Below are positions 1-31,964 of a stretch of DNA of 64,000 nt, in pieces. The stretch's first letter is position 1. Each line of letters opens with the position of its first letter. This DNA comes from Pontiella sp. (GTDB lineage Bacteria > Verrucomicrobiota > Kiritimatiellia > Kiritimatiellales > Pontiellaceae), in the NCBI GenBank assembly GCA_050290185.1, contig JBNKHE010000001.1, positions 514,713-578,712 of the forward strand, given 5' to 3'. The notes beneath the pieces were generated by a model. It saw nothing but the letters and a program-made list of their open reading frames with translations, searched no databases and was not told the origin of the DNA. The position numbers and the translations under genes are program-made.

Positions 1-1500
1 CATGACGGTGTAGCGCGGTTCTGCATATTTTATTTCATAGTCGACCTTCAGTTTTTCGAGGCGCGTAATCATTTCATCGTTAAAATCGCAGAAATAATAT
101 TCGCGGACGGCGGCGATGATTTCGAAGGTGTCGTACTGGAACTTCAGGTCCTCGGAGGGCAAACCGAGCATGTTGACCAGATCCTGCATCCAGCGGATTT
201 TTTCCAGCGCCATGTATCCCTGCTGCACGGTTTTTTCGCCGTTGGAGACGTAGCAACGCATAAACTTGCGCATGAAATGGTTGGCGACGATGTGCCGCCA
301 GTAGACGGTGACCAGCGGCGGAACGCGCAGCCGGCGGAAATAGATCCGGCTCGAGGCGAAGTCCTCGATGTAGAGCAGTTCCTTGATGACCTCGTCGGAA
401 AGCCGGAGCAGTTCCTGCAACGGTCGCCAATTCGGGTCGGGCCAGTGCGCGCGGTAGTATTGCTGGATGGCCTGGTCCGCGGAGATGCCGTCACGAAACA
501 GGCGGACGGTGACATAGGCATTGATCTCGTTCCAAACTGCGTTTTCATCGAGCCAGGTGAGCCGTCGGAAACCGCTCCACCCCCCGGTCTGGCACCAGAC
601 GGAGATGCCGGCAATGTTCTGGCCGACCAGCTTGTTGCGGATTTTTTCGTAGTCCCAGCCGATGAAGGAGGGATATTCGCCGAAGCCTTCGTATTCGCGC
701 CGCGCCTGGAACTCGATCAACTTGCGGTGGCGGCCGCGGAAAAAGAGCCGGTTGAGCGGAAGGTAGCGGAAGAAGTCAGACGGGCCATGTTTCATGGAAA
801 TGATGAGGTGGTCGCTTTCCACCCCCCGGAACACCTTGTCGAAGGTCTCAGAGTTCCAGATGAGGTCCCCCACTCCGCCGACGCCGACGCTCCATGTGCG
901 GAAAATGAGCAGTTTGTCGAATTCCTCGAAGACCGGCAGCAGCGCCTGAAGCATCTTTCTGGCTTGCGACGGCCGGTGGATCATGATCCGGCTATGGAAG
1001 TCGCCCTCCACATCCACACCGTCGGCTTCGCCGATGCGGAAGACGATGCCCGCCACATCGGGGAACACCTCGAAAAGCTGGCGGCAGGCGTGGGCGGCGA
1101 AACGGCGAAGGGCCGGATCGCGCGAGGCAATGCTTCGCTCGATCTCCTCGTTGAAGAACAGCAGATCGGTGGTGACGAAAACCCGCATGCCGTATTCCGC
1201 CGCCGTATCGAAGAGGTCCCGAAACAACAGACGGTATTCCGCGATCTTGTTTTTCAGGCCGTCGGAATAGAATGGAAAGATGCAGCAATGCGCCAGATCG
1301 TCGAGCGTGATGGCGTTGTAGCCGGTTTCCGATGCCTTGCGGCAAAAGGTTTTAAAATCGGATTTGATTTGGGCGCAGCGTTCGGGATCGAGTCCACCGT
1401 CCCGCTCCAGATGCGAAAACGGGGCCTTTGACCAGTTGATGACCTTCTGATCACAGCCCCGGAAAAACGGCGCAATGCCGTCGATGATAAACAGGTTCAT
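1..1500 (-). CDS. Conserved protein with GH67 (alpha-glucuronidase)-like motifs; runs off the window edge
   Basis: Absent from the ORF track because no stop lies inside the window. Manual translation from ATG 1500 (MNLFIIDGIAPFF...) stays open to position 1. Motifs LIFRTW, SMKHGPSDFF and EFQARREYEG resemble GH67 KNGPxDFQ and EFQITQEY. Confidence 0.6.
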   Translation of the reverse strand, partial: MNLFIIDGIAPFFRGCDQKVINWSKAPFSHLERDGGLDPERCAQIKSDFKTFCRKASETGYNAITLDDLAHCCIFPFYSDGLKNKIAEYRLLFRDLFDTAAEYGMRVFVTTDLLFFNEEIERSIASRDPALRRFAAHACRQLFEVFPDVAGIVFRIGEADGVDVEGDFHSRIMIHRPSQARKMLQALLPVFEEFDKLLIFRTWSVGVGGVGDLIWNSETFDKVFRGVESDHLIISMKHGPSDFFRYLPLNRLFFRGRHRKLIEFQARREYEGFGEYPSFIGWDYEKIRNKLVGQNIAGISVWCQTGGWSGFRRLTWLDENAVWNEINAYVTVRLFRDGISADQAIQQYYRAHWPDPNWRPLQELLRLSDEVIKELLYIEDFASSRIYFRRLRVPPLVTVYWRHIVANHFMRKFMRCYVSNGEKTVQQGYMALEKIRWMQDLVNMLGLPSEDLKFQYDTFEIIAAVREYYFCDFNDEMITRLEKLKVDYEIKYAEPRYTVM

Positions 1501-1510
1501 GGAATCCCGC

Positions 1511-2209
1511 TCAAATTTCCTTCATGCGGTAGCCGACGCCCCGGACGGTTTCGATATACCGTCCGGCGGAACCGATCTTGCGGCGGAGCCCGACAATCTG
1601 GACATCCACCGAACGCTCGGAAATTCCAACATCCCGGTCGTGGGCGGCATCGATGATCTGCCGGCGCGTGAACACCCGCCCCGGCTCGCCCGCCAGCAGC
1701 TGGAGGATCAAAAAGTCGGTATGGGTTAACTCCACGGATTTGCCATCGACCTTCACCGTAAAGCGCAACGGATCGATATCGAGGTTGTGTATGGAAATCG
1801 GTGTCGGCCCCTCGTCGGCCGACTGGACATCGCAACGGCGCAGCACGGCATCGATCCGGGCCCGCAGCACATCCGGACTGAAAGGTTTCGCGACATAATC
1901 ATCGGCCCCCATCTCCAGCCCCGCCACCACATCCTTGTCCTGGCCCATGGCCGAAATCATGATGATGGGAATGGTGCTGGTTTTGGGATAGCGCCGCACC
2001 TGCTGGCAGACCTGTTTCCCGTCCACGCCGGGCAACATGAGATCCAGGATAATCATGTCGGGCAGCAGATCCACCACGTTCAACAAGGCGGTTTCCCCCG
2101 AATCCGCAAGGGTGACCTCCCATCCATCCTTCTCGAGGTTGAACAGAAGCAACTCCTGCAGTGCGAGGTCGTCCTCGACTACGAGTATTCTACGCAACTG
2201 TTCCGTCAT
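1511..2209 (-). CDS. PhoB/OmpR-family response regulator (second, orphan PhoB-like paralog)
   Basis: Receiver domain (VVEDD, LDLMLP, AKPFS) plus winged helix (RSVDVQIVGLRRK, IETVRGVGYR). GGAG RBS favours the start at 2209. Confidence 0.9.
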   Translation of the reverse strand: MTEQLRRILVVEDDLALQELLLFNLEKDGWEVTLADSGETALLNVVDLLPDMIILDLMLPGVDGKQVCQQVRRYPKTSTIPIIMISAMGQDKDVVAGLEMGADDYVAKPFSPDVLRARIDAVLRRCDVQSADEGPTPISIHNLDIDPLRFTVKVDGKSVELTHTDFLILQLLAGEPGRVFTRRQIIDAAHDRDVGISERSVDVQIVGLRRKIGSAGRYIETVRGVGYRMKEI

Positions 2210-2220
2210 AATCATTCTCC

Positions 2221-3690
2221 TTATCCCCGTGTCTTGGCGATGCGTTCGACCTGCTTGAGGTAATCGTTGATGTCATCGCGCGGCTTCAGCTCGTAAGCGC
2301 GGCGCAACAACGGAAGTGCATCCTGGTACTTGGCCTGACCCACCAGCAGCTGCCCTTCATAGAGCTTGGCCTCGGCCTCGTATTTTTCGATGTTGGCGGC
2401 GCGCTCGTAGTAGAACATCGCCTTTTCCGGAAGGTTGCGTCCATAGTGCTGGGCGAGCAGGATCAGGGCCTCGCCGTCGAGCGGGTCGACCTCCACCACC
2501 TGTTCGAGAATCTTCACCACATCCTCGCCGCCGCCTTCGGAAACGGCAATGCGCGCCTGCAGCTTAAGCAGTTCCTTGAGGTTGGTTTCGTCGAGCGCGC
2601 TCTTGTGTTCGGCCACGCGGTTCAGCATGCGCTTGGACTCCTCCAATGCGCCGCGCGAGGCGAGGATCTTGGCCGCGCGCAAGGCCTTGGAAGGATCGTT
2701 TCCGTTGTCGAGCTCGTAGGCGCGCAGATAGGCGTCGGCCGCCATGTCCCAGCGCGACTCGTTGACGTAGATGTCGGCCAGCATGGTCATGCTATCTGCC
2801 GAGGCTTTGCCCAGCGTGTTTACATATTCATAGTTTTCGGCGGCGCGCATCGGCTGCTTTAGGCCGAGATAGGCATTGGCCTGCAACAACCAGAAATCGG
2901 CATTGTCCGGCTGTTTCCGGATCAACGCGTCGCAAAGGCTGGCGGCATCGCCGTACTTCTGTTGCTTGAACAAGCTACGGGCAAGGCCGAGCTGCCAATC
3001 GAGCGTTTCCGGATCGAGCAGGATGGCCTGGCGGTAGGCGGATTCCGCGCACAGGTTGTTCTCGGTGGAGGCGTAGGCGAAGCCGAGCAGACCGTAGGCC
3101 GTGCTGGTGTTCCCGCCGAGCTCGATGGTCTTCGTCAGGTATGGCAGGGCCTTTTCAAAATCGCCGTTGCGGACCAGGATGAGACCGGCGTTCTTGTAGG
3201 CGCGGCGGAAGGTCCCGAACTTTCCGATCGCCTTGTCGTACCACGCCAGCGCGTCCTCGAGTTTTTCCTGCTGGAAGTAGAGGTTGCCGATGGTGAAGTC
3301 GAAGATGGCGGACGAGGAATCCTTCGTCATCTTCAGCAGTTGCTGCATGGCCTTGTCCATGTCGTCCTCCTTGGAGAGGATATCCATGACCTTCTGCATC
3401 TGCTCGCGCTCGACGGCGGTCACGCGCGGCTCGATATCCGCGTTCACGCCGTAGCTGCCGAGGAATTCCTGCTGGAACTTCTTGCTGTCCCAAATGGAAA
3501 GATCGGCCGCCGGGTTTGCTGTTTCGGCCGGCTTCTTGATCCGCCCCATGTCCGGTTCGGCCAATACCTGATTCTGGGCCGCCGTCCCTCCACTGGACAT
3601 GGCCGTCAGCAAGGCATCCATGTCGTCGGCCAAGGCCACGCCGCTGGCCAGCAGGCCAAGGATAATTAGTGATCGTTGCTTATTCATCAT
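2221..3690 (-). CDS. Exported TPR-repeat protein (TtpD-like)
   Basis: Signal peptide and many TPR-like helical repeats; directly downstream of tonB. Confidence 0.85.
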   Translation of the reverse strand: MMNKQRSLIILGLLASGVALADDMDALLTAMSSGGTAAQNQVLAEPDMGRIKKPAETANPAADLSIWDSKKFQQEFLGSYGVNADIEPRVTAVEREQMQKVMDILSKEDDMDKAMQQLLKMTKDSSSAIFDFTIGNLYFQQEKLEDALAWYDKAIGKFGTFRRAYKNAGLILVRNGDFEKALPYLTKTIELGGNTSTAYGLLGFAYASTENNLCAESAYRQAILLDPETLDWQLGLARSLFKQQKYGDAASLCDALIRKQPDNADFWLLQANAYLGLKQPMRAAENYEYVNTLGKASADSMTMLADIYVNESRWDMAADAYLRAYELDNGNDPSKALRAAKILASRGALEESKRMLNRVAEHKSALDETNLKELLKLQARIAVSEGGGEDVVKILEQVVEVDPLDGEALILLAQHYGRNLPEKAMFYYERAANIEKYEAEAKLYEGQLLVGQAKYQDALPLLRRAYELKPRDDINDYLKQVERIAKTRG

Positions 3691-3699
3691 GTTGCATTC

Positions 3700-4356
3700 C
3701 TATTTTTGAAAGGTGATGGGCACACGCATCCGGAACTGGACGGGCTGGCCCTTGCGCTTGCCCGGTTCGAACTTCCACTGCTTCACGGCCTTGAGTGCCG
3801 GTTCGTTGAACGCCGGATGGGTTGTCTTTTGGACCTTCAGATCGCGGGTGCGGCCGGTCTTGTCGACCACGAACAGGACATAGACCGTACCCTGCATGTT
3901 CTTTTTCGCCAGCTCGCGTGGATAGATCGGCGCGGGCTGGTAGACCACGCGCGGCTTCTGGTCGAGATCGGAGAGCGAGAAGATGGCATCCACCGCTTCG
4001 CCGCCGCCGGTCACGCCACCGAGATCAATCTTGAAGTCGCCGCCGCCAAAGCCGCCGTCGCCCGGATTGAGCGCCAGTTCCAGCTGGGAGAGATCCAGCG
4101 GTTGCGCATCGATTGCCGGCGGAGGCGGAGGCTCCTCTTCCGGCTCGGGCTCTTCCTCCTCCATCGGAGGAGGCGGCGGAGGCGGCTCGAGGTTGGCTAC
4201 ATCCACGGTGCGGATGGTCAGATCCTTCGTCACCGGCTTGGTGATGACCTGCAAGACCGGCAGGATCATGAAGAGCGCCAGCGACACGACCAGCGCGAGC
4301 CCTAAATAGAACGCGTGGTTGGCCAGGGATTTTAAAAATTTAAGCAGGCTGTTCAC
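3700..4356 (-). CDS. tonB: Energy transducer TonB
   Basis: N-terminal TM, Pro/Glu-rich linker, C-terminal YP...QGTVYVLFVVD...WKFEP domain. Confidence 0.93.
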   Translation of the reverse strand: MNSLLKFLKSLANHAFYLGLALVVSLALFMILPVLQVITKPVTKDLTIRTVDVANLEPPPPPPPMEEEEPEPEEEPPPPPAIDAQPLDLSQLELALNPGDGGFGGGDFKIDLGGVTGGGEAVDAIFSLSDLDQKPRVVYQPAPIYPRELAKKNMQGTVYVLFVVDKTGRTRDLKVQKTTHPAFNEPALKAVKQWKFEPGKRKGQPVQFRMRVPITFQK

Positions 4357-4362
4357 TATGGA

Positions 4363-4773
4363 TTATCCCTGTTTCTTGAGGGTCGCGATGCTGACCTTTT
4401 CGGCGCCGGCAAGCTTGGCTTCGTCGATCACGCGGACCAACAGGCCGGACTTGACGTTCTGGTCGGCCTGTACGATGACTGGCACCTCTTCCTTCTGCAT
4501 CATGCGCTTCACCAGCGGCTGCACACCGGCGATGCCGATTTCGCGGCCGCCGTAGACGACTTCACCCTTGTCAGTGATCGCCAGCAGAATACTGGTCTTT
4601 TCCAGATTCACCGACGAGGCCGCCTGCGGCTTGTCAACTTCCACGCCGGTTTCCTCCACGAAGGTGGTGGTTACGATGAAGAAAATGAGCAGGATGAATA
4701 CGCAGTCGATGAGCGGGGAAATATCCACGCCTGCTTCTGAATTGTCGTCGGTGTTGCTTCTAAATCGTGCCAT
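4363..4773 (-). CDS. exbD: Biopolymer transport protein ExbD
   Basis: DISPLIDCVFILLIFFIVT motif. Confidence 0.95.
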   Translation of the reverse strand: MARFRSNTDDNSEAGVDISPLIDCVFILLIFFIVTTTFVEETGVEVDKPQAASSVNLEKTSILLAITDKGEVVYGGREIGIAGVQPLVKRMMQKEEVPVIVQADQNVKSGLLVRVIDEAKLAGAEKVSIATLKKQG

Positions 4774-4783
4774 GTTGAACTCC

Positions 4784-4811
4784 GTGATGAGTGATACGTG
4801 AGGCGTGACTG
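4784..4811. repeat. Period-7 GTGA tandem repeat, intergenic
   Basis: GTGA at 4784, 4791, 4798, 4805. Confidence 0.7.
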
Positions 4812-4812
4812 A

Positions 4813-5436
4813 TCATGCCGCCTCAGATTTTTTCTGCTGTTTGTAAAGTCGCTGCGTGCAGACGGTCTGCAAGTGGGCGAGGAAGGCCTTGTATTGTTCG
4901 TGCTCGCGCGCCAGCTTGTACTGAAAGACGATGCCGGGAAGCGCGATGAGCAGGCCGGTTTCGGTGGTGATCAACGCTTCGGAAATACCGCTGGCCACCA
5001 TGCCCATGGTTTTGTCGCCGCCCGAGCCCGAAGCCAGCGCGGCGAACGTGGAGAGCATGCCGGTCACGGTGCCCAGCAGCCCAAGCAACGGCGCCACGCT
5101 CACGCAGGTCTGCATGACCTTCAGGTCACGGTCGAACGGGGCGATCTCGGTCTGGTGGAGTTCGTCGAAAAAGATTCCGATCTCCTTCAGCGAGGTCGCC
5201 CCCATCACAAACTGGATCATCCGGCCAACCGGACCGCGGCCCTTTTCCGGGTTCTTGGTCCATTGCTTCATTTTCTTTTCCGTGACGTAGAGATACCCTT
5301 TGCCCCGGATGCGGAAAAAGATGCTGTGTCCGAGGTAGAAGATGACCACGGCGTCGAACGCCAGGGCGATCATCCCCCACCCGCCTGAAGACCAGATCTC
5401 CAGGGCCTGCTGCCAAATTGACGTTGTTTCTTCCAT
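4813..5436 (-). CDS. exbB: MotA/TolQ/ExbB proton channel protein
   Basis: APLLGLLGTVTGM and GISEALITT motifs. Confidence 0.93.
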   Translation of the reverse strand: MEETTSIWQQALEIWSSGGWGMIALAFDAVVIFYLGHSIFFRIRGKGYLYVTEKKMKQWTKNPEKGRGPVGRMIQFVMGATSLKEIGIFFDELHQTEIAPFDRDLKVMQTCVSVAPLLGLLGTVTGMLSTFAALASGSGGDKTMGMVASGISEALITTETGLLIALPGIVFQYKLAREHEQYKAFLAHLQTVCTQRLYKQQKKSEAA

Positions 5437-5441
5437 TATGC

Positions 5442-5511
5442 GTGATCCGTGACGATTGAGACGTGATTCATTCTGCGTAGAGCATGTCTATGTTCAGTGT
5501 TCATCCGTGGC
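5442..5511. repeat. Period-7 GTGA tandem repeat, intergenic
   Basis: GTGA 5442, GTGA 5449, TTGA 5456, GTGA 5463; followed by TGTTCAG-TGTTCATCCGTGG. Confidence 0.65.
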
Positions 5512-5513
5512 CG

Positions 5514-6893
5514 CTACGCTTCTTGAGGTGCGGTGCGCGTGGCGCGGTTCATGAACAGGATGGCGACCTGCTCCATGCGGTCGGTTATGCTCCGGGCCTT
5601 GCGCGAGAGAAAGGCATGGAGCACCAGCGCGAAGATCGCCACAACCAGTCCCAGTTCGGTGGTGATCAACGCTTCGGAGATCCCGCCGGAGAGCGTCTTC
5701 ACATCGCCTGAACCAAACACCGTGATCAGCTTGAAGGTGTTGATGATGCCGGTCACGGTACCCAGCAGACCCAGCAACGGAGCAGACGACGCACAGACCG
5801 CGATGAACGAGGTCCACTTGTTCACGCTCAGGCGCGTCGTGAGCATTTCCTCGTACATCACTTCTTCGACCAGATCCTTCGGCTCGTCGATATGCTCGAT
5901 GCCCGCCTTCAACATCGCGGCGGTCGGGCCCTTGATTTTGGCAACCTTCTCCAGCGCCTGGGCATGGTTGTTGTGCAGCATGGCCTTGAGCAGCGGCTGG
6001 ATCTCCTTTTCGGGCGGCATCGGAATCAGGGAAAGCTGGATCCACTTTCCGCAGGCAACGATTACGGCAAGGATGAACATGCCGACGATGGGATAGACCA
6101 CAAAACCGCCTTTTTTCAGATGCTCGCCGAGCGTTTCATGGGTTTCCTCGATCTTGCGCGCATTGCCCAGGCTCGGATCGAACGGAAAGATGCCCGACTT
6201 GTTTTTGACAGTGTCGCGTACCAGCTGCGCATTCGCGCCGTCGGAAAACGGCATCACGGTCGGCTCAAGCGAACCCAGGCGTTGCTCGGCGATGCCGGCC
6301 ATCGAACCGTCATCGGAAGCAAACAAGGCCACCGGACCAACGAGGGCGAAGTTCCCCTGCTTGACCAAGCCATCCTCGCCCGCCGCACTGCCGGCAAAGG
6401 CGGTCCCGCCGACCGCGTCCCGAAGACGCTTGATGGACGCTTCGACCAACGAGGTTTGCTTGATGAAGATTTCCTCGTCGGACAGGTTGGTATTGTCGGG
6501 GGCCAACACAGCGGTATCGATGACCTCCTTGTACTGGTCCAGTTCGGCAATGTGCAGGCGCGTCTGGAAGTTGCGGATGTATTCGCCGAGCAGGTTCGAG
6601 ATGTAGCTCTTTTCCCCCTGGCGCGACTTGATCTCGGAGCGCAGGTTGTTGAGATCGAGGTTGCGGCTGTCGAGCTGGCGCTGCACCCTCTGGTTCTCGA
6701 GGCGCACTTCCATGACCTCGTCTTCAAGGGCGTTGAGGCCTTTCACCATCGGCAGCTTTTCCTTGGCGATGTCCGCGCGGACCTTCGAAAGCTCCTGCAG
6801 GCTGTTTTCCAGTTTGGTCTCCATGTCGGCCGATTGCGCAAACGCACCTCCGGCACACAGCAATAGTAAAGTGATCGTATGCTTCATTTTCAT
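5514..6893 (-). CDS. Long ExbB-family protein with periplasmic coiled-coil N-terminus (TtpC-like)
   Basis: Signal peptide, coiled coil, C-terminal APLLGLLGTVTG / GISEALITT. Confidence 0.9.
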   Translation of the reverse strand: MKMKHTITLLLLCAGGAFAQSADMETKLENSLQELSKVRADIAKEKLPMVKGLNALEDEVMEVRLENQRVQRQLDSRNLDLNNLRSEIKSRQGEKSYISNLLGEYIRNFQTRLHIAELDQYKEVIDTAVLAPDNTNLSDEEIFIKQTSLVEASIKRLRDAVGGTAFAGSAAGEDGLVKQGNFALVGPVALFASDDGSMAGIAEQRLGSLEPTVMPFSDGANAQLVRDTVKNKSGIFPFDPSLGNARKIEETHETLGEHLKKGGFVVYPIVGMFILAVIVACGKWIQLSLIPMPPEKEIQPLLKAMLHNNHAQALEKVAKIKGPTAAMLKAGIEHIDEPKDLVEEVMYEEMLTTRLSVNKWTSFIAVCASSAPLLGLLGTVTGIINTFKLITVFGSGDVKTLSGGISEALITTELGLVVAIFALVLHAFLSRKARSITDRMEQVAILFMNRATRTAPQEA

Positions 6894-6897
6894 TTCC

Positions 6898-7647
6898 TCA
6901 GTTCACGCTGACGGGGAGCGGGATGAATTCCGCGACCTTTTCGTTTTTCAAAACGGCGATGGCGTCGGCCACCTTGGGGGCGATGGTGTTGTCGGCTTCC
7001 CACTTCCAGCCATCGGCGTCCGGGTAGCCGTAGCCGGCGATATCGCCCTTGTTGGTGCAGTAGTAGGCGCGGGCATATCCGATGTAGAGGGTCTGGACCT
7101 CAGCCTGGCTTCCGTCGGGCAGCTCCTTCGTTTCGCTCACGACCGTGATTTCGTTGGCGCCCTTGTTCAGCTCGTTGATGATGCCGATCACGTTCTGGTA
7201 GCGTTCGGAGAGCGACAGGTCGGTTTCCTCCGTCTTGGGAATGCGCTGGCTCAGCGGCTTGATGCGGTCCTGTACCGGCGACGGCAACGTCGGGAGCAGC
7301 GCGAGCACATTCCGTTCAAGAGTGAAGATCCGGTTGACCAACGTGGCAGATGCGTTCTTAAGCGAATCGTTTTCCTCTACCAGATCCTCGCGCTTCTTGT
7401 CCGCGCCGGTAATCAGCGACTGCGTCTCGTGGATCTTCTGCGAAAGCGTGTCCCGCTCGGAGCGGACGAGATCGATGCGGTCGCCGAGCATTTCGCGCTC
7501 CAGTTCCCACGTCTGCTTCTCCTCGGAGATCAGCTTGCGGGTTTCCACCCACTTCGAAAGCATCTCCTTGGTGCGATCCAGCTCCTGCGCCTGCACACAG
7601 GCCGCCGCGCCGGAAATGGCCAAAATCATCAGTAATTGTCTTTTCAT
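6898..7647 (-). CDS. DUF3450-family periplasmic coiled-coil protein (TtpB-like)
   Basis: Signal peptide, coiled coil, LSERY...LYIGYA pattern, and position before the long ExbB. Confidence 0.8.
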   Translation of the reverse strand: MKRQLLMILAISGAAACVQAQELDRTKEMLSKWVETRKLISEEKQTWELEREMLGDRIDLVRSERDTLSQKIHETQSLITGADKKREDLVEENDSLKNASATLVNRIFTLERNVLALLPTLPSPVQDRIKPLSQRIPKTEETDLSLSERYQNVIGIINELNKGANEITVVSETKELPDGSQAEVQTLYIGYARAYYCTNKGDIAGYGYPDADGWKWEADNTIAPKVADAIAVLKNEKVAEFIPLPVSVN

Positions 7648-7658
7648 GTTTACCTCGG

Positions 7659-7718
7659 GCTAGAGTTCTATTTTCAGATTGTTGGTTACGAGTGAGCGGT
7701 TTGTTAGCTGGCTGTTAC
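7659..7718 (-). promoter_or_regulatory. Candidate Pho box (11-bp-period repeats) before the Ton motor genes
   Basis: Plus strand: GCTAG 7659, GTTGG 7681, GTGAG 7692, GTTAG 7703, GTTAC 7714. These read as CTAAC-like units on the minus strand. Confidence 0.55.
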
Positions 7719-10700
7719 CATGTCCCTTTCACCCCCAGGCTGTACTCGATCCCTTTCGTGTAGGACGACTTGACGGTGTCTCCGGACAGGTGCTTGCTCC
7801 GGTAGACCTGCTGGATCTCCGGATCGGTCAGGTTCTTGGCCTTGAACGATAGCGAGAAGTGATCGGTCAGTTTCTGGGAGAGGGTAAAATTGAGTGTTGC
7901 GTGTTCCTTGGCATAGACATCGGGGAAGTATCCTTCGGATATGTTTGCCCCGGCCAGCAGGGCGTCGCCGTTGACGATGTAGAACAAACCCAGTTTGGTG
8001 CCCGAGCTGGCAATCCCGTAGGTGACGTTTGCGTTGTAGAGATATTCGGGAGCCCCCATCATGGCGCGCTTCGGCTCCGGATATCCGGCGCTCGCAAGCT
8101 CAACCGCATCGGCGTCTGAAAGCGTCACCTCCGAATCGATAAAGGTGGCGTTGGCACCGATGGCGAGCCCCTCGAGCGCATCCCAGAATTGTCCCAGCTG
8201 CTGGCGGCACTCGATCTCGTAGCCGGACAGCTTGCCTTCCGGATAATTAACCGCGGTAATATAGTCTTCAATGTTGGCTACATAGCCCTGAGTATATTCG
8301 ATCGGCTGGTCGACCTGCTTCTGAAACCAGGACATCGATACCAGACCGCCCGGATACGGCGCATAATCCACTCGCACGTCCTGATTTTTCAACGAACTCA
8401 TTTGGAGGAAGGGATTCCCCACGAACACATCGCCCCCGAGATATTCAACCTGCTGGATCGGCGTCAATTCCTTGAACGTCTGCCGGGCAACGGTTTCGCT
8501 GTAGGAAGCCCGCAAGGTCACGGTGTCGAGCGGCTTTAATTGCAACCCGTACGAAGGAAGGACATCGGTCTGGTGAAAATCCACATCCGCATCGCCTGCA
8601 TGAAGCTGCGATGCGCCGGACTCGCCCGGCTTGACCCACAGGACATCCTTCTCGGGATTGATCAGGGTGATGGCCAGATCGGTCGATTCAAACCGCGCCC
8701 CCCCGATCAGGGTCAGGTACGGGGTAACCGGCAGCTCGGCCATGTAGTACCAGGCCGAAAGGTCCTGCGAGCCTTCATAGTCCACATCGATGGTTGCGGC
8801 ATACAGGATATCGTTCGGGCCTGGATACTGATCGGTCCAGTATTCGGACCAGGGCAGTTTCGGCCCCGAGTAGGGATTGATGCTGTTATCGGCCGGGTTG
8901 CCGAAGTTGCTGTATGATTCCTGGTCATAGGTGCGTTCAACCGAGTCGCTGAACAAGCCGGTCTTCAGACTTCCTTCCTCACCCGACCACTGCTCGAACG
9001 GAATCTTCAGATTCAGGAAGTATTGATCGCTCTCCTCGGAAACGTCCTTCCACACCCGCTGCAGGTTCCCCAGCGTGGCCGATCCCGGCTTGTCCTGGTA
9101 GTATCCGGCATCCACCGTGTTGGTTGTAGGCGGTGCGCCGCGATAGCCCGGAATCACTTCCCGGTAACCGGGATTCCACAGCGATCCAAACAATCGCTTG
9201 TCGGGTTGCTTCAAAGCAGAGGTACTGTGCGCCAGCGTCCAATCCAGCTCCGGCTTGCCGAAGGAAAACCAATCCCCAGCTTCCCACTCCGGCACGGGCA
9301 AAACATGGTCGCCGCCCAACTGCAAGGTGGAGGTGTCGCGCTCGGTATAATTCAAGGTTTGGCTGCGGCGATAGGGCGCGGCGTTTGCATAGTCGGGGCT
9401 ATCATCCATGGCCATGGGATCGTACCCCGGAACCCGGGAGGTCACATAATAGTCCTTGCCGCGCGTATCCTCCGCCACAATCGCCTTGTCCTCGGCCACA
9501 TGCGTGGTCATGTACAACAGCGACAACGTTTGGTCATCCACTTCAAGTCCAACGGCTGCCAGCCCGCCCCATTGAACCTCGCTGGAACCCTGTTTAATAT
9601 CATAGAGACTGGTTTTGTAGTCGCTCGCAACATTGTTCAACGGATTGTCGCTTCCGGAAAAGAACGGCACCATTTGCCCGTTGCGTACCCACCACTTGTC
9701 GCTCCGCTTGTCATCGGTGTACGAGGCATCGGTTTTGTAGTAGAAGTTGGCCAGGCTCGCCACCTTTACGCCGTCGAAGAACGCCTTCTTGCCGCCGGCC
9801 GTCAACGACCAGTCGTACACGTCGGGCCGCTCACCGCGCGAAGTTCCAACCGCCCCCTTCCAGGTGGTGCCGGCGACTTGCTCATCGCGCCGCCCGTCAT
9901 TCAGCCCCCAGGTGCCAACCCCTCCGCCGGCATACGACAGAAACTCCCCATCGTCCGGCCATGAGTTTTTGTATTTCGATCCGATCGAAAATTTCAGGAG
10001 CCCATCCTCCGGCATGCTCTTGAGCACCACGTTGACCGACCCTCCGGAAGCATCGCCCTGCTGATCGGGCACGAAGGTCTTCGTAACCTGCACGCTTTCA
10101 ATCAGGGCACTGGGAAACTGGTCGAGCTGGACGGCGCGCTTGTCGGGATCGGCCGATGGCAGACGTACCCCATTCATCAGCGACACCACATAGCGGTCCG
10201 GCAAGCCGCGCACCACCGCATACTTGCCATCCTGCACAGTCGTGCCCGACACGAGGCTCAATGCCTGCGCCGCATCGGATACGCCGGCCTGGCCCATCAT
10301 ATCGGCACCGACCGAATCCATCAAAGCCGAGCTTTCCAAGCGCAGGTTGAGCAAGCCGATTTCCGACGCCCCCCCGAGCTGGATGTCGCGTACGACCAGT
10401 TCGTCCATATCCTCGTATTCGCCCGCCATTAGCGCATCGATTTCGGCCAGTTGCCCGGCACTGACCACGACTTGCGGCTTGGTCAGCCGCGTGTAGCCCG
10501 ACTTGCTGAAAAGCAGCGTATAGGCACCCGGCTCCACCCCTTCGAAGTAAAAGCTTCCGGCATCACCGGTTTGCGTCTCCTGCCCAGTTTCCGAAACACG
10601 GATCTTCACGCCGGGGAGCGGCACCTCAAAATCCGAATCGGTGACCGTGCCGCGTATACCGCCCAGTTGGGCATAGCTCCCTGCAGCAACCAGCCACAGA

Positions 10701-10738
10701 GCCGTGGGAAGCAACCATTTAAAAGCTCGTGTTACCAT
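7715..10738 (-). CDS. TonB-dependent receptor with N-terminal carboxypeptidase-regulatory-like domain
   Basis: Signal peptide; plug motifs VRGLPDRY, LDQFPSALIESVQVTKT, GGSVNV; C-terminal aromatic residue (VKGTW). Confidence 0.93.
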   Translation of the reverse strand: MVTRAFKWLLPTALWLVAAGSYAQLGGIRGTVTDSDFEVPLPGVKIRVSETGQETQTGDAGSFYFEGVEPGAYTLLFSKSGYTRLTKPQVVVSAGQLAEIDALMAGEYEDMDELVVRDIQLGGASEIGLLNLRLESSALMDSVGADMMGQAGVSDAAQALSLVSGTTVQDGKYAVVRGLPDRYVVSLMNGVRLPSADPDKRAVQLDQFPSALIESVQVTKTFVPDQQGDASGGSVNVVLKSMPEDGLLKFSIGSKYKNSWPDDGEFLSYAGGGVGTWGLNDGRRDEQVAGTTWKGAVGTSRGERPDVYDWSLTAGGKKAFFDGVKVASLANFYYKTDASYTDDKRSDKWWVRNGQMVPFFSGSDNPLNNVASDYKTSLYDIKQGSSEVQWGGLAAVGLEVDDQTLSLLYMTTHVAEDKAIVAEDTRGKDYYVTSRVPGYDPMAMDDSPDYANAAPYRRSQTLNYTERDTSTLQLGGDHVLPVPEWEAGDWFSFGKPELDWTLAHSTSALKQPDKRLFGSLWNPGYREVIPGYRGAPPTTNTVDAGYYQDKPGSATLGNLQRVWKDVSEESDQYFLNLKIPFEQWSGEEGSLKTGLFSDSVERTYDQESYSNFGNPADNSINPYSGPKLPWSEYWTDQYPGPNDILYAATIDVDYEGSQDLSAWYYMAELPVTPYLTLIGGARFESTDLAITLINPEKDVLWVKPGESGASQLHAGDADVDFHQTDVLPSYGLQLKPLDTVTLRASYSETVARQTFKELTPIQQVEYLGGDVFVGNPFLQMSSLKNQDVRVDYAPYPGGLVSMSWFQKQVDQPIEYTQGYVANIEDYITAVNYPEGKLSGYEIECRQQLGQFWDALEGLAIGANATFIDSEVTLSDADAVELASAGYPEPKRAMMGAPEYLYNANVTYGIASSGTKLGLFYIVNGDALLAGANISEGYFPDVYAKEHATLNFTLSQKLTDHFSLSFKAKNLTDPEIQQVYRSKHLSGDTVKSSYTKGIEYSLGVKGTW

Positions 10739-11943
10739 GGATCTCCCAAACCGCTCTTGATTTCATTTATGCGCTTCCAGAGCACCGCATCGGGCTGCAT
10801 GCCGTGCGTAGCCATGGAAAGTAGAATCTGGCAAAGGTCTTCCGCCCGCGGGCGGGAGTTCGTGTTGACGACCGCCTGCTCGACGGCCTGCGCGTAGATT
10901 TTTTGGGCATTCGCTGCGTCGCCGGCAAGGGCATACGCTTCGGCCACGGGAAGGAGCGCTTCCGTTCGGTAGATATTGATGATATCGGCCTTCTTGGCAT
11001 TGAAGATTTCCTGCGCCTCCAGCAACTCGCGCAGAGCCGCTTCCCGTTGGCCGCACTTGATTTCAAGATTGGCAATCCGGGCCAGCACCTTAATGTGGTA
11101 TTCCGCAGGCCATTCCAAACTGTTGACGATCCCGCGGGCTTTCCCGGCCAACCGCGCAGCCTCTGCACCATTATCGTGCTTCAACGCCGAATCGATCAGG
11201 GAACCCAGCAAATCAATGCGGTTGAAGTAAGGGATCTTGTCCCAACCCGATTCAATTTTTTCTTCAATCAATGCACGTCGGGACGCGTTGTCGTAGAACT
11301 GGTCGTAGAGTGCCGCATAGGCGTACAACGCGCTGTCCTTCAGATCGAGGTCGCCGGTGTCCAGTTGCAGATCGAGCTTCCGGCTGTATTCGTCGAATTC
11401 GGCCTCCGTGCAGCGCATCGACTTTTGCAGGGCCGCCGAGCCGGACTCCGTTTGTTTCAGAGAGTTTCCATATTGGGCCGCTTTTTCCATATCGCCCATG
11501 GCCCGCCAGGTCTGGGCCACCCGGACCAAAACCCGTTCGCGGCGCCAATCCTGCGTTGCGCCGCGGGCGGCGATGTCCGCCTTCTCCAGCAACGAGGCCA
11601 CTTCATTGGTATATCCTAGCCCGACGCAGTAGAAGGCATAGTCGGCATACGCCCTGCCCCGGCGCCAGTTGGGAATTTGTCCGGCATATTTCAATGCGCG
11701 AGAGGGCTGATCCAGCTCCAGGGCGCTGTCCACCACCAATTCCTGATAGTGGGCGCGGTCCTTGATGTGCGGCTCCAACGGAATGGCTGTCGCGAATGCA
11801 AAGGCTTCGTCCAACAGCTCGGCCTGGAACGCAGCTATGGGCTGGTCGCGGAGACGTTCCGTTTGCGTTTCGACACAGCCGCTTGCCACGATCAAGAGCA
11901 AGCCCATCCAACATACTTTGTTCAATACATACATTGATTCCAC
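10732..11943 (-). CDS. Alpha-helical (TPR-like) lipoprotein of unknown function
   Basis: Lipobox-like LLIVASG-C, helical repeats, stop overlapping the receptor start. Confidence 0.7.
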   Translation of the reverse strand: MESMYVLNKVCWMGLLLIVASGCVETQTERLRDQPIAAFQAELLDEAFAFATAIPLEPHIKDRAHYQELVVDSALELDQPSRALKYAGQIPNWRRGRAYADYAFYCVGLGYTNEVASLLEKADIAARGATQDWRRERVLVRVAQTWRAMGDMEKAAQYGNSLKQTESGSAALQKSMRCTEAEFDEYSRKLDLQLDTGDLDLKDSALYAYAALYDQFYDNASRRALIEEKIESGWDKIPYFNRIDLLGSLIDSALKHDNGAEAARLAGKARGIVNSLEWPAEYHIKVLARIANLEIKCGQREAALRELLEAQEIFNAKKADIINIYRTEALLPVAEAYALAGDAANAQKIYAQAVEQAVVNTNSRPRAEDLCQILLSMATHGMQPDAVLWKRINEIKSGLGDPW

Positions 11944-11979
11944 ACTGTTTTCTTACCGCACACACACATTTATTTTTGG

Positions 11980-12013
11980 CAAAAGAGTGGTGGCAGGGAC
12001 GGTCCCTGCCACC
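11980..12013 (-). terminator. Strong intra-operon hairpin after the beta-helix gene
   Basis: GGTGGCAGGGAC-G-GTCCCTGCCACC perfect inverted repeat, followed by ACTCTTTT on the minus strand. Confidence 0.75.
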
Positions 12014-12041
12014 GGGGTTTCCAGAATCACCGGGATTCGAA

Positions 12042-13778
12042 CTACTTCAGAACCACGCGGTAGAATCCGGAGGCCTGCAGATCGGCGTCGCCATAGTTCT
12101 TGTAGGAACCATCACCAACAACGCTAGCCACGTAGGACCACGGTCCGCCGGGATTGTCGGAACCTTCGATCACGTATTCCACGCCGTCCTCCGACTGGAA
12201 TGAAACGACGACACCGTTGGCGATGGACGCAGCCGGAGTATCGCTGTTCATGCTGGTATCGGTCATGCCGTAGGCATCAACGGCGGTCCAGCCGGCGAGC
12301 CAGTTGTAGTGGGGCGAGAATCCACCGCGGTACGGAGCCGCAACATAGAAGCCGTCGGCCGTTTCCGGGTTGGCCACACTGGCAGCGGCATTCTGCGCAC
12401 AGGGATTGATGTTGGTCACCAGTGCAACGCTCTTGCCACCGCGGGTCACGACCGGTCCGCGGGTGAAACTGACGATCGGATCGTCGGTGGTCACGATGTT
12501 GTCCAGCGCCGGATTGCTGGCATAAGCGCCTGCAGTTCCGTTCAGGATGCCGAGCGCAAGCACCTGGTCGCCGGAATCATTTTCATTGACGTAGTTGAAG
12601 AGGCAACCCTTCATTTCAGCCAGGTAGCCGGACGTCTGCACCGGATACATGTCGGCGGCATCGGCATAAACCGAGTTCGTCCAGTTGACGGCCGGGTAGT
12701 TCGAGTAGGCCGTGGTCCACAGGTCCGCGAAAGCGAGCGTACCATTGTAGCCGTAGCCCTGGGCGCCGTCGCCGTCATCGCCATCCAAACGGATAATTTC
12801 TTCGCCGATGTCCATGAAGATGCAGTTGTGGTACTGAACACGGGCACCATCGCGCCACGTGGTAGCGCCATCGCCGGAGAACGGGTTTCCGATTACGGTG
12901 AAGTTGGCGATCTTGGTGGAGGTGCAGGGTTGTGCGTCGGAATCCTCGGCACCGTCATGCTCGAAGCAGTTGTCGCCAAGACCGGAACCCTGGGAGTCAT
13001 CCTTGGAATAGCCCTGAACGATCAGGCCGAACTGGGCCTTGCCGCGCCAGCCCTGGTCGATGTCCATGCTGTCGTCGCCGACATTCCAAATGCTGATGTG
13101 CTTGTAGTTGACCGTTCCGCCCCAGGTTTCAATCCCGTCGTCGACGTTGTTCATGATTTCAACATAGTCTACGTCGGTTTCACGACCGATGCCGCCCATG
13201 GAAAGACCGTTCAGCTCGTTGGCCAGACCAACCACCTTGCCGCCGTAGCGCAAGGAGAGGTATTTGATCGAGCCGCTGTCGTCGTTGTCGTCGTTACCAC
13301 CGTAGAAGGTATCGTTGGTTCCGTCGGCAGTCAGACCTTCCATCTGAACCGTGTTCAGACCGGTTGGTGTCGGCGTGTTGCCCGGACGGCTGCGTACGGT
13401 GTCGGAGTAAGCGCCGATCAGCGCACGGCCCATCAGCGTCAGGTTGCCCCATTCGTTACAACCTTCATGCCAGCTGGTCAGATTGTCGGACGTGGAGGTC
13501 ATGATGACCGGCGCATCCTTGGTGCCGTTGACATAGATCTTGGCCCCGCGGGACACCGCAAGCGATCCACCAACACCAGTCGTGCTTTGCACCAGCGTAC
13601 CCGGCTGGATCGTCAGCGTGGCACCGGCGCGCACATAGATTTGCTTGGTCAGGTTGTATACGTTGTCGGATGTCCAGGTTACCGAATTGGTGATGTCGCC
13701 CGTGACATCCACATTGGCCGCCTGCGCACCCAAACCGGCGGACAGCATGGCTGCCGCTATTATGAATTGCTTCTTCAT
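12042..13778 (-). CDS. Secreted Asp/Gly-rich pectin-lyase-like (beta-helix) surface protein
   Basis: AAGGAG RBS before MKKQFIIA; signal peptide; motifs YGGNDDNDDSG, ELNGLSMGGIG, DDGIETWGG, GDDSMDIDQGW; C-terminal GFYRVVLK. Confidence 0.8.
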   Translation of the reverse strand: MKKQFIIAAAMLSAGLGAQAANVDVTGDITNSVTWTSDNVYNLTKQIYVRAGATLTIQPGTLVQSTTGVGGSLAVSRGAKIYVNGTKDAPVIMTSTSDNLTSWHEGCNEWGNLTLMGRALIGAYSDTVRSRPGNTPTPTGLNTVQMEGLTADGTNDTFYGGNDDNDDSGSIKYLSLRYGGKVVGLANELNGLSMGGIGRETDVDYVEIMNNVDDGIETWGGTVNYKHISIWNVGDDSMDIDQGWRGKAQFGLIVQGYSKDDSQGSGLGDNCFEHDGAEDSDAQPCTSTKIANFTVIGNPFSGDGATTWRDGARVQYHNCIFMDIGEEIIRLDGDDGDGAQGYGYNGTLAFADLWTTAYSNYPAVNWTNSVYADAADMYPVQTSGYLAEMKGCLFNYVNENDSGDQVLALGILNGTAGAYASNPALDNIVTTDDPIVSFTRGPVVTRGGKSVALVTNINPCAQNAAASVANPETADGFYVAAPYRGGFSPHYNWLAGWTAVDAYGMTDTSMNSDTPAASIANGVVVSFQSEDGVEYVIEGSDNPGGPWSYVASVVGDGSYKNYGDADLQASGFYRVVLK

Positions 13779-13988
13779 GTAATCATCTCCTTTGTTTTTA
13801 AAACCGTTACGGTCACCCGCAGATTGATTCGTGGTTTGCCAAAGGGCCGGAGACGGCGGCATCTTCTGTTTCTAGCCCGTCCGGCTCCGGTCAAATCCGC
13901 TGAAACGTCAAAGTGGTTGGGTTCGTTTCAATTTAATTCGCCCCAGCGGATTTATTCCCTTTGACGCGGCCCATTTGGCGGGTTTCGT

Positions 13989-14048
13989 GTTTGGAAATGA
14001 TTAGAAGGCGTTATGGATGCCGTTGGGTTTGTGCGAGCAAACAGCAAG
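13989..14048 (-). promoter_or_regulatory. Degenerate candidate Pho box upstream of the uptake operon
   Basis: Plus strand: GTTTG 13989, ATTAG 14000, GTTAT 14010, GTTGG 14022, GCGAG 14033, GCAAG 14044; about 11-bp period. Confidence 0.35.
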
Positions 14049-14074
14049 CGTAATATTATGATTGTATGAGCAAC

Positions 14075-23175: not shown

Positions 23176-23193
23176 ATGGGGAACATTGTCGGC

Positions 23194-23892
23194 ATGGAAA
23201 AGATCAAGATTCTGGTTGTCGAAGATGAAGCACCGATTCAGGAGCTATTGCAGTTTAATCTAGAACGGAGCAAGTATCGTGTAACGGTAGTGGACTCCGG
23301 CGAGGAAGCGCTGGAAGAGGCGGCCAGGCTCCAGCCCAACCTGATCCTGCTCGATATCATGCTTCCGGGCGCCGACGGGCTGGAGGTGTGCAAGCAACTG
23401 AAGGTCAATTCCAGAACCCGGAACATTCCGATCATCATGCTGACGGCCCTTTGCGAGGAGGCCGACATTGTGACCGGTCTGGAGCTGGGTGCGGACGACT
23501 ACATCACCAAGCCCTTCAGCCCGCGGGTACTGCTGGCACGCGTTAAAGCCGCCCTGCGCCGCATCGAGTCGGCCAAACCGGTTGAAACCGACGGGGAACT
23601 GATCAATATCCACGACATCTCAATTGATGTCGGCCGCCACAAAGTGGAAGCGGACGGCGAAGCCATAACGCTGACCTTCACCGAGTTCAAGGTCCTGCAG
23701 CTCCTCGCCAGCCAGCCGGGCCGGGTGTTCACCCGCTACCAGATCGTCGACGCCGTCCACGGCGACGACTATCCCGTAACCGACCGTTCGGTGGACGTGC
23801 AGATTGTGGGCCTCCGCAAAAAGCTGGGCGATGCGGGACAATACATTGAGACCGTGCGAGGCATCGGTTACCGCTTCAAAGAAGATGATTAG
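23194..23892 (+). CDS. phoB: Phosphate regulon response regulator
   Basis: VVEDEAPI receiver plus OmpR wHTH; adjacent to a PhoR-like kinase and the pst genes. Confidence 0.9.
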   Translation: MEKIKILVVEDEAPIQELLQFNLERSKYRVTVVDSGEEALEEAARLQPNLILLDIMLPGADGLEVCKQLKVNSRTRNIPIIMLTALCEEADIVTGLELGADDYITKPFSPRVLLARVKAALRRIESAKPVETDGELINIHDISIDVGRHKVEADGEAITLTFTEFKVLQLLASQPGRVFTRYQIVDAVHGDDYPVTDRSVDVQIVGLRKKLGDAGQYIETVRGIGYRFKEDD

Positions 23893-23910
23893 CATCTGGA
23901 ACGGCGGAAC

Positions 23911-25701: not shown

Positions 25702-25748
25702 CAAATTGCTAACATTTAAAGGTTAGCTTCCTGTTAGGTTTTTGCTAG
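25698..25748. promoter_or_regulatory. Candidate Pho box, two arrays in opposite orientation
   Basis: CTAAC 25698 and 25709, then GTTAG 25722, GTTAG 25733, GCTAG 25744; exact 11-bp spacing within each array. Confidence 0.65.
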
Positions 25749-25787
25749 TTTTCGCGCGCATTTATTAACCGAACCGGGGGAGAGAGA

Positions 25788-27488: not shown

Positions 27489-27509
27489 CACAACAAAACC
27501 CTTGTTTCC

Positions 27510-27547
27510 GAAAGGCTCTTCCTCGACAGGAAGGGCCTTTTTCCTTT
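27510..27547 (+). terminator. Intrinsic terminator
   Basis: AAAGGCTCTTCCT-CGAC-AGGAAGGGCCTTTTT. Confidence 0.8.
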
Positions 27548-27639
27548 GTTAGGAGCCCTTGGCGCCAAGCAATACCCCATTATTATGTAGTTTATTCCGG
27601 AGATTTTGATAGCTTGTCGCTCTGAATTTTTAACAGGGG

Positions 27640-29325: not shown

Positions 29326-29422
29326 GAGCCACCGCCAACCAACCGGGATATCCACCGCGGATGCGCTGGGTCTTTCTTTGTGCAAATCCAAGCCAAATCC
29401 TGCACTCATCCATTACTAATAT

Positions 29423-29449
29423 TTAACCCCACCCTCATACTTTCCTAAC
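29423..29449 (+). promoter_or_regulatory. Candidate Pho box upstream of the porin
   Basis: TTAAC 29423, CTCAT 29434, CTAAC 29445. Confidence 0.55.
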
Positions 29450-29626
29450 ACATATTCCCCAAACATTTTCCCATGTTTTGGAAGAGAAGCCCGCGCATTG
29501 AAAACCCCATGGAAATCATTGGACAGTAACGTGCGTGTATTCTTAAGTTCTTCCGATATGCAGTCGGGTGTTTCCCGGGAACAGGAGACATCGTTAGCTA
29601 ACAAACCCCAAATGGAGGATGAATAG

Positions 29627-30778: not shown

Positions 30779-30798
30779 TCAACCTATGCAACGGCTTG

Positions 30799-30829
30799 AA
30801 AAAAGGCACCCTTCCGGGTGCCTTTTTTT
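30799..30829 (+). terminator. Intrinsic terminator
   Basis: AAAAAAGGCACCC-TTCC-GGGTGCCTTTTTT. Confidence 0.85.
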
Positions 30830-30847
30830 ATTCTCCCGGCCCGTTTT

Positions 30848-30885
30848 CTAACCGCTTCCTAATAATTCAAACACAATCAGCTAAC
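30848..30885 (+). promoter_or_regulatory. Candidate Pho box upstream of pstS
   Basis: CTAAC 30848, CTAAT 30859, CTAAC 30881 (offsets 0, +11, +33). Confidence 0.6.
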
Positions 30886-30957
30886 GGTTATGTTTCAGAT
30901 TCATTAGCGATTTAAGAAACCACTGTTAGCAAACCACACAACCAAGGAGAACACATT

Positions 30958-31773: not shown

Positions 31774-31793
31774 CCGTATGCGACGATTGACGA

Positions 31794-31824
31794 TAAAGGC
31801 GCGACCCCCGTGGTCGCGCCTTTA
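31794..31824 (+). terminator. Hairpin after pstS
   Basis: TAAAGGCGCGACC...GGTCGCGCCTTTA. Confidence 0.7.
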
Positions 31825-31891
31825 TGGTTTGCAGCTCCGTCTTCAGACGGCCGGGGAATAGCCACTAAAAGACGAAACAACGAACCCTTTC

Positions 31892-31918: not shown

Positions 31919-31964
31919 AATTACAACTCACTATCCAGCCCGTCTTTAAGAGGTTTTTGTGCCT

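Follow-up and report, generated by a model that had tools for sequence, protein, structure and literature searches.

An ElpS-family beta-helix protein encoded with a TonB-dependent transporter and a dedicated Ton motor behind Pho-box-like arrays in Pontiella

Gene content and organisation of the locus

We analysed a stretch of 64,000 nucleotides from a Pontiella genome (GenBank assembly GCA_050290185.1, contig JBNKHE010000001.1, positions 514,713 to 578,712; the window, below), the left part of which carries an operon for a right-handed beta-helix protein, a predicted lipoprotein, a TonB-dependent transporter and a Ton motor. The host genome is 3.6 Mb in size, 95.5% complete and Pontiella-like. 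All eleven open reading frames (ORFs) of the operon lie on the minus strand, running from position 13778 to beyond the left edge of the window in the order that an earlier note on this DNA had described (Table 1). Most intergenic gaps measure 5-78 nt, with the exception of a gap of about 100 nt after the first gene that contains a terminator-like hairpin. Pfam domains identified in the run were those of a TonB-dependent receptor (plug, barrel and CarboxypepD_reg), DUF3450, two MotA_ExbB domains, ExbD, TonB_C, TPR and a response regulator. Nine of the genes, encoding the beta-helix protein, the lipoprotein, the transporter and the six motor proteins, are a conserved core kept across the Planctomycetota-Verrucomicrobiota-Chlamydiota (PVC) bacteria and related lineages.

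Table 1. Features of the operon and of the neighbouring pho cluster (window positions).
Feature	Position	Strand	Basis and remarks
GH67 alpha-glucuronidase-like protein, 570 aa, accessory	1..1500, ends 213 nt left of window	-	Fold match
PhoB duplicate, accessory	1511..2215	-	55% identical to PhoB at 23176, near-identical recognition helix
TPR protein (TtpD-like)	2221..3690	-	Pfam
TonB	3700..4356	-	Pfam
ExbD	4363..4773	-	Pfam
ExbB	4813..5436	-	Pfam
Long ExbB (TtpC-like)	5514..6893	-	Pfam
DUF3450 (TtpB-like)	6898..7647	-	Pfam
Pho-box-like array, four in-register units before DUF3450	7676..7719	-	Matrix scan; predicted internal promoter for motor genes
TonB-dependent transporter, 1007 aa, N-terminal CarboxypepD_reg	7715..10738	-	Pfam; homology to receptors beside other ElpS homologues
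TPR-like predicted lipoprotein, about 400 aa	10732..11934	-	No curated family; stop overlaps transporter start
Terminator-like hairpin, 11 pairs, between first gene and rest	11989..12013	-	Pattern match; such matches not enriched over shuffles
ElpS/FII/BT4056-family right-handed beta-helix protein, 578 aa, PF28492	12042..13778	-	Homology, profile comparison, structure model
Structured 5' leader, about 190 nt: three-way junction (P1, long P2, P3 with A-rich loop) and GNRA-loop hairpin before the ribosome-binding site	13779..13968	-	Folding, covariation
Pho-box-like array, seven degenerate in-register 11-bp units, CTAAY-type core	13984..14060	-	Matrix scan, period-11 conservation
Neighbouring pho cluster: phoB, phoR, two Na/Pi cotransporters, porin, pstSCAB, phoU	23176..36160	+	Pfam; promoters form the motif training set

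The motor genes stand in the order ttpB-ttpC-exbB-exbD-tonB-ttpD and, with their DUF3450 and TPR components, correspond to the six-protein systems of Vibrio, which bears out the dedicated Ton motor of the earlier note. The lipoprotein is TPR-like according to language-model features, at a recognition score under the threshold of the tool. The transporter is homologous to the receptors that accompany ElpS homologues in Sphingomonas (E 6e-30), Pseudoalteromonas (2e-47) and Bacteroides (4e-24), and gave no match to the two other receptors of its own genome. The idea that it might be the sole TonB-dependent receptor of the genome was rejected on finding these two (G000:C1:471081-479827 and C8:71589-73229, G000 being the host genome), one of which lies with its own exbB-exbD-tonB among cobalamin-type genes and the other among biotin-type genes, as judged by eye.

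The beta-helix protein and its family

The first gene encodes a protein for which scans of Pfam and NCBIfam returned no curated family; PF28492 (Beta_helix_4) is annotated on all 120 homologues listed. Its nearest relatives are from Pontiella and other Kiritimatiellales, at up to 94% identity. It carries a plain signal peptide without a lipobox cysteine, an acidic core (pI 4.2, 58 Asp/Glu versus 25 Lys/Arg) and a C-terminal beta tail of approximately 65 aa, weakly matched by five other proteins of the same genome. The predicted model (pLDDT 88.9) is a right-handed beta-helix with a small C-terminal beta domain, and structure comparison gave Z scores of 15-21 against many beta-helix enzymes, placing the fold with the pectate-lyase/pectin-lyase-like group; sequence searches found no solved relative, and no solved beta-helix was a specific fold neighbour. 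Invariant Asp pairs are stacked on successive coils, an arrangement that we presume to resemble the calcium site of Pel9A, and the acidic core together with these pairs suggests that the protein probably binds Ca2+.

A plain signal peptide was also present on the 53 homologous N-termini listed, none of which showed a lipobox by eye. The C-termini vary by lineage and comprise an FYRV-ending beta tail, tails that we take to be dockerin-like, longer planctomycete tails, or no tail at all. In some relatives the beta-helix unit is doubled or tripled, within one protein or as tandem genes (L020, L041, L060, L152; L and G numbers denote loci and genomes of the survey).

The protein matched 23 records of a plasmid collection, four of which were opened for context. 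In the Sphingomonas match (L058), which appears circularly permuted, the beta-helix gene is followed by a receptor gene and gsp genes, in the elpS-receptor-gspC..J layout, and the protein is 36% identical to that of the window over 271 columns (hhalign 99.8%, E 2e-30). As the elpS-cc0171 layout of Caulobacter is conserved in Sphingomonas (PMC2996285), the link to ElpS runs through this synteny with the published figure legend. The Pseudoalteromonas match sits between a DUF3450-exbB-exbB-exbD-tonB-TPR motor and a receptor, the Bacteroides match is a lipoprotein ORF downstream of a non-SusC receptor, and no receptor was seen near the Marinobacter match. ElpS, BT4056 and Fjoh_0546 have been linked as one family of the pectin lyase superfamily, the pair with the receptor being found in 621 genera (Price et al., bioRxiv 2023.03.17.533168). 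The resemblance to phosphorus-induced pairs of Caulobacter and Flavobacterium that the earlier note had pointed out is thus now one of homology, by way of the Sphingomonas profile match.

The Caulobacter and Flavobacterium members are induced by phosphorus limitation. ElpS of Caulobacter crescentus is under phosphate-starvation induction (PMC2996285), and TonB receptors are included in a listing of the Caulobacter PhoB regulon (PMC11208175). In Flavobacterium johnsoniae, Fjoh_0545 and Fjoh_0546 lie within a phoBR cluster and respond strongly and phosphorus-specifically (log2 fold change 8.0 and 9.9), by depletion of inorganic phosphate (Pi) and not of iron, and FI makes up 18.7% of the low-phosphorus exoproteome (PMC8115612). 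A September 2026 preprint reports the solved structure of PusCD1 and calls the function of Pus3 and Pus4 hard to predict (10.64898/2026.09.03.749221).

Distribution of the module

Among 57 genome loci from Kiritimatiellota, Planctomycetota, Omnitrophota, Sumerlaeota and other lineages, the lipoprotein was present in 53, the receptor in 52 and DUF3450 in 46, and all three were found in each of the 42 loci that have 5.5 kb of downstream sequence. Gene order is permuted in some loci, the lipoprotein staying with the beta-helix gene behind the motor in four and with the receptor in others. The beta-helix gene occurs in 39 of 89 Kiritimatiellales genomes and in 42 of 301 sampled genomes of the phylum; in 19 genomes selected from these 42, a receptor lies at most two genes away in every case; motor genes come into view in 13 of these genomes, as do pst, porin or phoBR genes in six. 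The lipoprotein was found in 18 of the 301 genomes, every one in the class of the window, and adjoins the beta-helix gene in 15 of them. Cultured Pontiella carry the module (L004, L009, L057). In other Verrucomicrobiota (L146, L147, L164) the pair is embedded within porin-pstSCAB-phoU operons, and for 12 of the 39 Kiritimatiellales genomes that have the beta-helix gene, pstS is on the same contig at a distance of no more than 35 kb.

The earlier note knew of no described equivalent in PVC bacteria. We likewise found no paper on the PVC form of the ElpS-transporter module in literature listings, and a preprint on Pontiella agarivorans mentions TonB only generically. The linkage of transporter, beta-helix protein and motor is not specific to PVC bacteria, the same being present in Pseudoalteromonas (Gammaproteobacteria).

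Two further associations were noted. Genes for PEP-CTERM proteins and for a conserved secreted protein of 300-340 aa flank the beta-helix gene in many relatives (L118:55-1621, L117:589-1596, L149-L157, L165), and Opitutales-like loci hold three more conserved genes, for proteins of 210-270 aa, between the pair and the motor.

Pho-box-like arrays

A matrix trained on the phoB, nptA, porin, pstS and pstC promoters alone was used to scan the whole genome without a filter. With 6-unit and 7-unit arrays, the site before DUF3450 ranked 5 and 6 in the genome and the site before the first gene 6 and 4, respectively, these being the best two sites outside the training set; with 3-unit arrays the same sites ranked only 11 and 15. 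The 11-bp repeats that the earlier note had reported before the Ton genes and, weakly, before the first gene are therefore real and stronger than it claimed. The first unit of the array at 7719-7676 overlaps the stop codon of the transporter gene and is thus partly forced, and a -10-like hexamer follows this array after 10 nt; a sigma-70 promoter scan was uninformative. Column conservation across 14 upstream regions has a period of 11 (p=0.0012; p>0.34 for periods 8-10 and 12-14), and by eye eight of 12 Kiritimatiellales loci keep the array before DUF3450.

Upstream regions of the module also scored above control promoters of the same loci, both in Kiritimatiellota (16 versus 36, medians 10.7 versus 2.7, p ~1e-5) and in other phyla (33 versus 77, medians 7.0 versus 1.7, p ~1e-5), a comparison in which kin are not independent and which excludes loci whose upstream DNA is short or masked, as well as five that are near-duplicates or truncated. 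The matrix further flagged a PhoX gene that is unlinked and outside the training set, with a site ranked 24-26 about 80 nt 5' of the gene and phoA 3 kb further on. On these sequence grounds the operon is very probably regulated by phosphate. At the nptA promoter (25697-25749) Pho-like units lie on both strands, and the inverted arrangement also occurs before pstS and phoB.

A structured leader RNA

The approximately 190 nucleotides that separate the array from the first start codon are conserved and have a folding z score of -4.1, and the loop of their hairpin is GNRA in nearly all alignment rows. In 18 leader sequences 94% of cells pair and 12 of 31 pairs change on both sides, which none of 500 shuffles reached and which compares with 36-52% pairing in slid controls of the alignment; the structure was derived from the same alignment as the covariation test, and most of the signal lies in the long P2 stem. 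A pseudoknot reading was dropped, as the nested three-way junction folds in most sequences. Rfam contains no family over the leader, its two matches elsewhere being at chance level and far below the gathering score. A covariance model gave 26 matches in 22 of 89 genomes, 22 of them directly before the beta-helix gene, most of these being training sequences. Across phyla, the Pontiella profile had no significant match outside Kiritimatiellales loci, and the folding of 26 other upstream regions, 24 of them outside Kiritimatiellales, was mostly unremarkable. The simplest reading of the leader, together with the hairpin after the first gene, is that they stabilise the mRNA of a very abundant protein.

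Variants of the leader occur in several genomes. A short form with its own array precedes the GH67-like gene in G044, and L004 has a second array and leader copy 1 kb upstream (8904-9180), with nothing but a hydrophobic ORF of 35 codons behind it. One genome that lacks the beta-helix gene has the leader directly before a truncated GH67-like gene (G011:C72:65286-65950), which looks like a deletion of the whole module. The leader of a sister family (L075, L082, L083, L084, L025, L033) is different and has a single hairpin, whose conserved loop is rich in purines and may be a protein-binding counterpart of the A-rich P3 loop.

The second PhoB and the GH67-like protein

The earlier note had also credited the system with its own regulator and its own enzyme, and neither description is supported. 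The second PhoB belongs to a long-stemmed sister clade of the PhoB clade of the genus (support 88/88); both PhoB proteins score below the TIGR02154 cut-off. It is an orphan without a cognate phoR, the phoR at 23911 sitting with the other phoB, and across 12 loci it is present in six, absent from five and undecidable in one. We read it as a patchy, lineage-restricted duplicate and a passenger of the Pho regulon. In another family of Kiritimatiellales the operon is immediately preceded by a PhoB-like gene.

The GH67-like protein, whose gene often closes the operon in Pontiella, matched the GH67M Pfam family below its cut-off (E 6e-4, 19.4 bits versus 23.5). Its fold is best matched by GH67 alpha-glucuronidases (PDB 1GQI, 1K9D and kin; E 3e-12, TM approximately 0.5, 11-13% identity), and a profile search of the PDB returned no GH67 chain. 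The protein starts with a core beta-strand and an invariant Asp and has no signal peptide. E158, R201, K237, D242, E263 and E269 are invariant in 40 homologues and may correspond to GH67 catalytic positions. In 80 metagenome loci around GH67-like genes the neighbours were a PHP-like/GT4 fusion in 26, PhoB in 16 and the beta-helix gene in two, with genes for DUF3419 proteins, methyltransferases and metallophosphoesterases in five or six each; we take DUF3419 to be BtaA, and the PHP label is likewise our assumption. Because the protein lacks a signal peptide and its neighbours resemble genes for phosphorus-free lipids, we read it as a likely lipid-remodelling passenger of the Pho regulon and as a candidate for glucuronosyl lipid turnover. 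One such fusion, a 798-aa protein with an N-terminal PHP-like and a GT4 domain (G000:C1:509489-511885, L263), is encoded 2.6 kb past the operon, at 2.8 kb from the left edge of the window, by a gene that has a three-unit Pho-like array in front of it. This gene is found repeatedly next to the module and next to the GH67-like gene, and its product is a candidate fused phospholipase-glycolipid synthase.

Neighbouring genes and phosphatases

Beyond the first gene come hmgR, cmoA, an arnTBCAD-like operon and then the complete pho cluster. The HMG-CoA reductase gene (14131-15336, minus strand) ends in a terminator immediately before the Pho array, and many Pontiella loci retain it between phoB and the module. 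The arnT-arnB-arnC-arnA-arnD-like lipid A modification operon (16376-23113, plus strand) lies directly 5' of phoB, as it does in L002, L005 and L106, and may be part of low-phosphate envelope remodelling. Elsewhere in the genome, co-stranded PhoX-family and PhoA-family genes lie downstream of a Pho-like array (G000:C8:132901-138480, L262) and are likely the hydrolases of the regulon; no PhoD was found in this 95.5% complete genome.

A predicted phosphorus import system and its alternatives

We consider it probable that the nine-gene core serves, under induction by PhoB, for the energised import of a scarce phosphorus-bearing molecule across the outer membrane. Phosphorylated PhoB would activate two promoters, those of the beta-helix gene and of the motor genes, and the folded leader with the hairpin after the first gene would raise the output of beta-helix protein far above that of transporter. 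Export would follow the general secretion route of the cell, via the C-terminal tail of the beta-helix protein, and Ca2+ bound by the stacked Asp/Glu ladder of this protein would in turn bind phosphate esters or condensed phosphates. The TPR-like lipoprotein may replace the missing lipid anchor and hold the protein at the transporter, which the private motor would unplug, presumably for inward transport; PhoX and PhoA, encoded elsewhere, would then free Pi in the periplasm for PstSCAB.

Several observations weigh against this account. Linkage to pho genes, which the earlier note had proposed to check by a survey of gene neighbourhoods, holds for the operons of other Verrucomicrobiota in which the pair is embedded, but among the 40 loci having at least 8 kb upstream only 11 show a pho gene. 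The module is clearly unlinked from pstS in G002, G055 and G056, the remaining genomes being undecidable, and the operon of the window itself has no phosphatase gene. Only two of 16 Kiritimatiellota promoters and seven of 33 from other phyla exceed the 95th percentile of the controls, and the matrix gives low scores to 13 promoters of other Verrucomicrobiota. Caulobacter expresses the receptor gene constitutively and regulates it separately from elpS, deletion of elpS left phosphatase activity unchanged, and ElpS itself is no phosphatase (PMC2996285). For the B. thetaiotaomicron pair, no fitness phenotype was clear and confident contacts were few (bioRxiv 2023.03.17.533168).

We entertain, as a rather unlikely possibility, a more elaborate version in which PVC bacteria would have rebuilt the ElpS receptor as a three-part machine: a free, secreted, calcium-phosphate-binding beta-helix protein that roams, captures polymeric or particle-bound phosphorus and docks on the transporter via the TPR lipoprotein, with a new leader RNA that senses ligand or protein acting on top of PhoB.

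A Pho-regulated system could also serve a metal, or a metal-phosphate complex (calcium, iron or the surface of a calcium phosphate mineral), required by phosphatases such as PhoX or bound to them, the beta-helix protein being a metal shuttle. PhoX needs iron and calcium, the genome has a Pho-boxed PhoX, and the very acidic core with its invariant stacked Asp pairs would suit such a role; moreover, overproduction of ElpS, though it is not a phosphatase, raised extracellular phosphatase activity (PMC2996285). However, neither a metal-regulator site nor an inner-membrane metal transporter was seen in the annotated loci, and other phosphorus-induced Flavobacterium receptors import organophosphate (PusCD1, bioRxiv 2026.09.03.749221), so that we regard a metal cargo as unlikely.

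Transport might instead run outwards, the transporter and motor being an Oar/PopC-like export or surface-assembly machine for the beta-helix and co-encoded PEP-CTERM proteins of a low-phosphate cell coat. PopC secretion needs Oar with a Ton system (PMC6434023), the transporter carries an N-terminal CarboxypepD_reg domain, many relatives have PEP-CTERM genes immediately beside the beta-helix gene, and the export of ElpS is unexplained according to Price et al. (bioRxiv 2023.03.17.533168). Against this, sorting signals differ by lineage (lipobox, dockerin-like and several beta tails) and the neighbour in Sphingomonas is a type II secretion system (T2SS), which suggests export by the general route of each host; we regard an exporter as quite unlikely.

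The pectate-lyase-like fold, with its Z scores against many beta-helix enzymes, the GH67 fold with conserved acidic residues and the glycan binding or hydrolysis proposed for FI and FII by Lidbury et al. (PMC8115612) would fit a polysaccharide lyase or hydrolase that frees phosphorylated fragments of algal, plant or bacterial surface polymers, the locus being akin to a polysaccharide utilisation locus and the GH67-like enzyme trimming the product. We hold this to be very unlikely, since no solved beta-helix stands out as a neighbour, the GH67-like protein lacks a signal peptide and has the beta-helix gene beside it in so few metagenome loci, and neither sugar transporters nor further carbohydrate-active enzymes recur in the loci. 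An iron-uptake TonB2 system with repeats arising by chance, in keeping with the motor order of the Vibrio TonB2 operon needed for siderophores (PMC6957404), is hardly credible given the repeat statistics (period 11, genome rank, enrichment over controls), the induction of the Flavobacterium family by depletion of Pi and not iron (PMC8115612) and a receptor-first layout that matches the non-iron TonB3 (PMC6957404).

Comparison with known systems

The module is the PVC (Kiritimatiellota/Planctomycetota) version of a widespread and already described pair of ElpS-family protein and TonB-dependent transporter. With ElpS (CC0170) and CC0171 of Caulobacter crescentus (PMC2996285) it shares a homologous beta-helix protein, an adjacent homologous receptor (via the Sphingomonas pair) and phosphate-starvation control, the induction here being predicted from the arrays. 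Caulobacter ElpS is a lipoprotein encoded beside T2SS genes, whereas the protein of the window has a C-terminal tail and no lipobox, and its gene precedes those for an extra lipoprotein and a private Ton motor. PUSIII/PUSIV of Flavobacterium johnsoniae (FI, and FII, which is Fjoh_0546, with Fjoh_0545; PMC8115612) and BT4055/BT4056 (bioRxiv 2023.03.17.533168) likewise combine a receptor with a pectin-lyase-fold partner, the surrounding phoBR cluster also encoding a porin and a lipid-remodelling glycosyltransferase, as here. Their partner is lipid-anchored and no dedicated motor is reported, whereas the genome of the window has such a motor and also keeps PstSCAB.

The motor has the same six-gene order as TonB2 and TonB3 of Vibrio vulnificus (PMC6957404). 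The earlier note's match to TonB2, whose operon is required for siderophore uptake, thus holds for gene order, but the closer comparison is TonB3, in which the receptor gene comes first and which does not transport iron (PMC6957404). Unlike either, the motor of the window lies under Pho boxes and is tied to an ElpS-family protein, the likeness to Vibrio being one of gene order. The usual neighbours of the GH67-like gene (GT4, DUF3419 and methyltransferase, metallophosphoesterase and phoB genes) resemble the PlcP/Agt/BtaAB system of phosphorus-free lipid remodelling, the available text on which does not mention a GH67-fold protein (PMC4796936). With GH67 alpha-glucuronidases the protein shares the fold, but it falls below the Pfam cut-off, is not exported and is encoded outside xylan loci.

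New in this locus are an ElpS-family protein without a lipid anchor and with swappable C-terminal tails, a near-constant TPR-like lipoprotein neighbour, a covarying leader of about 190 nt that is absent from Rfam, a Pho motif, and the link of a GH67-like protein to lipid genes. The motif can serve as a Pho box in Kiritimatiellota and in some Planctomycetota. In several phyla few surface systems are induced by low phosphorus as strongly as the ElpS/FII pair, which the present locus extends to the PVC bacteria.

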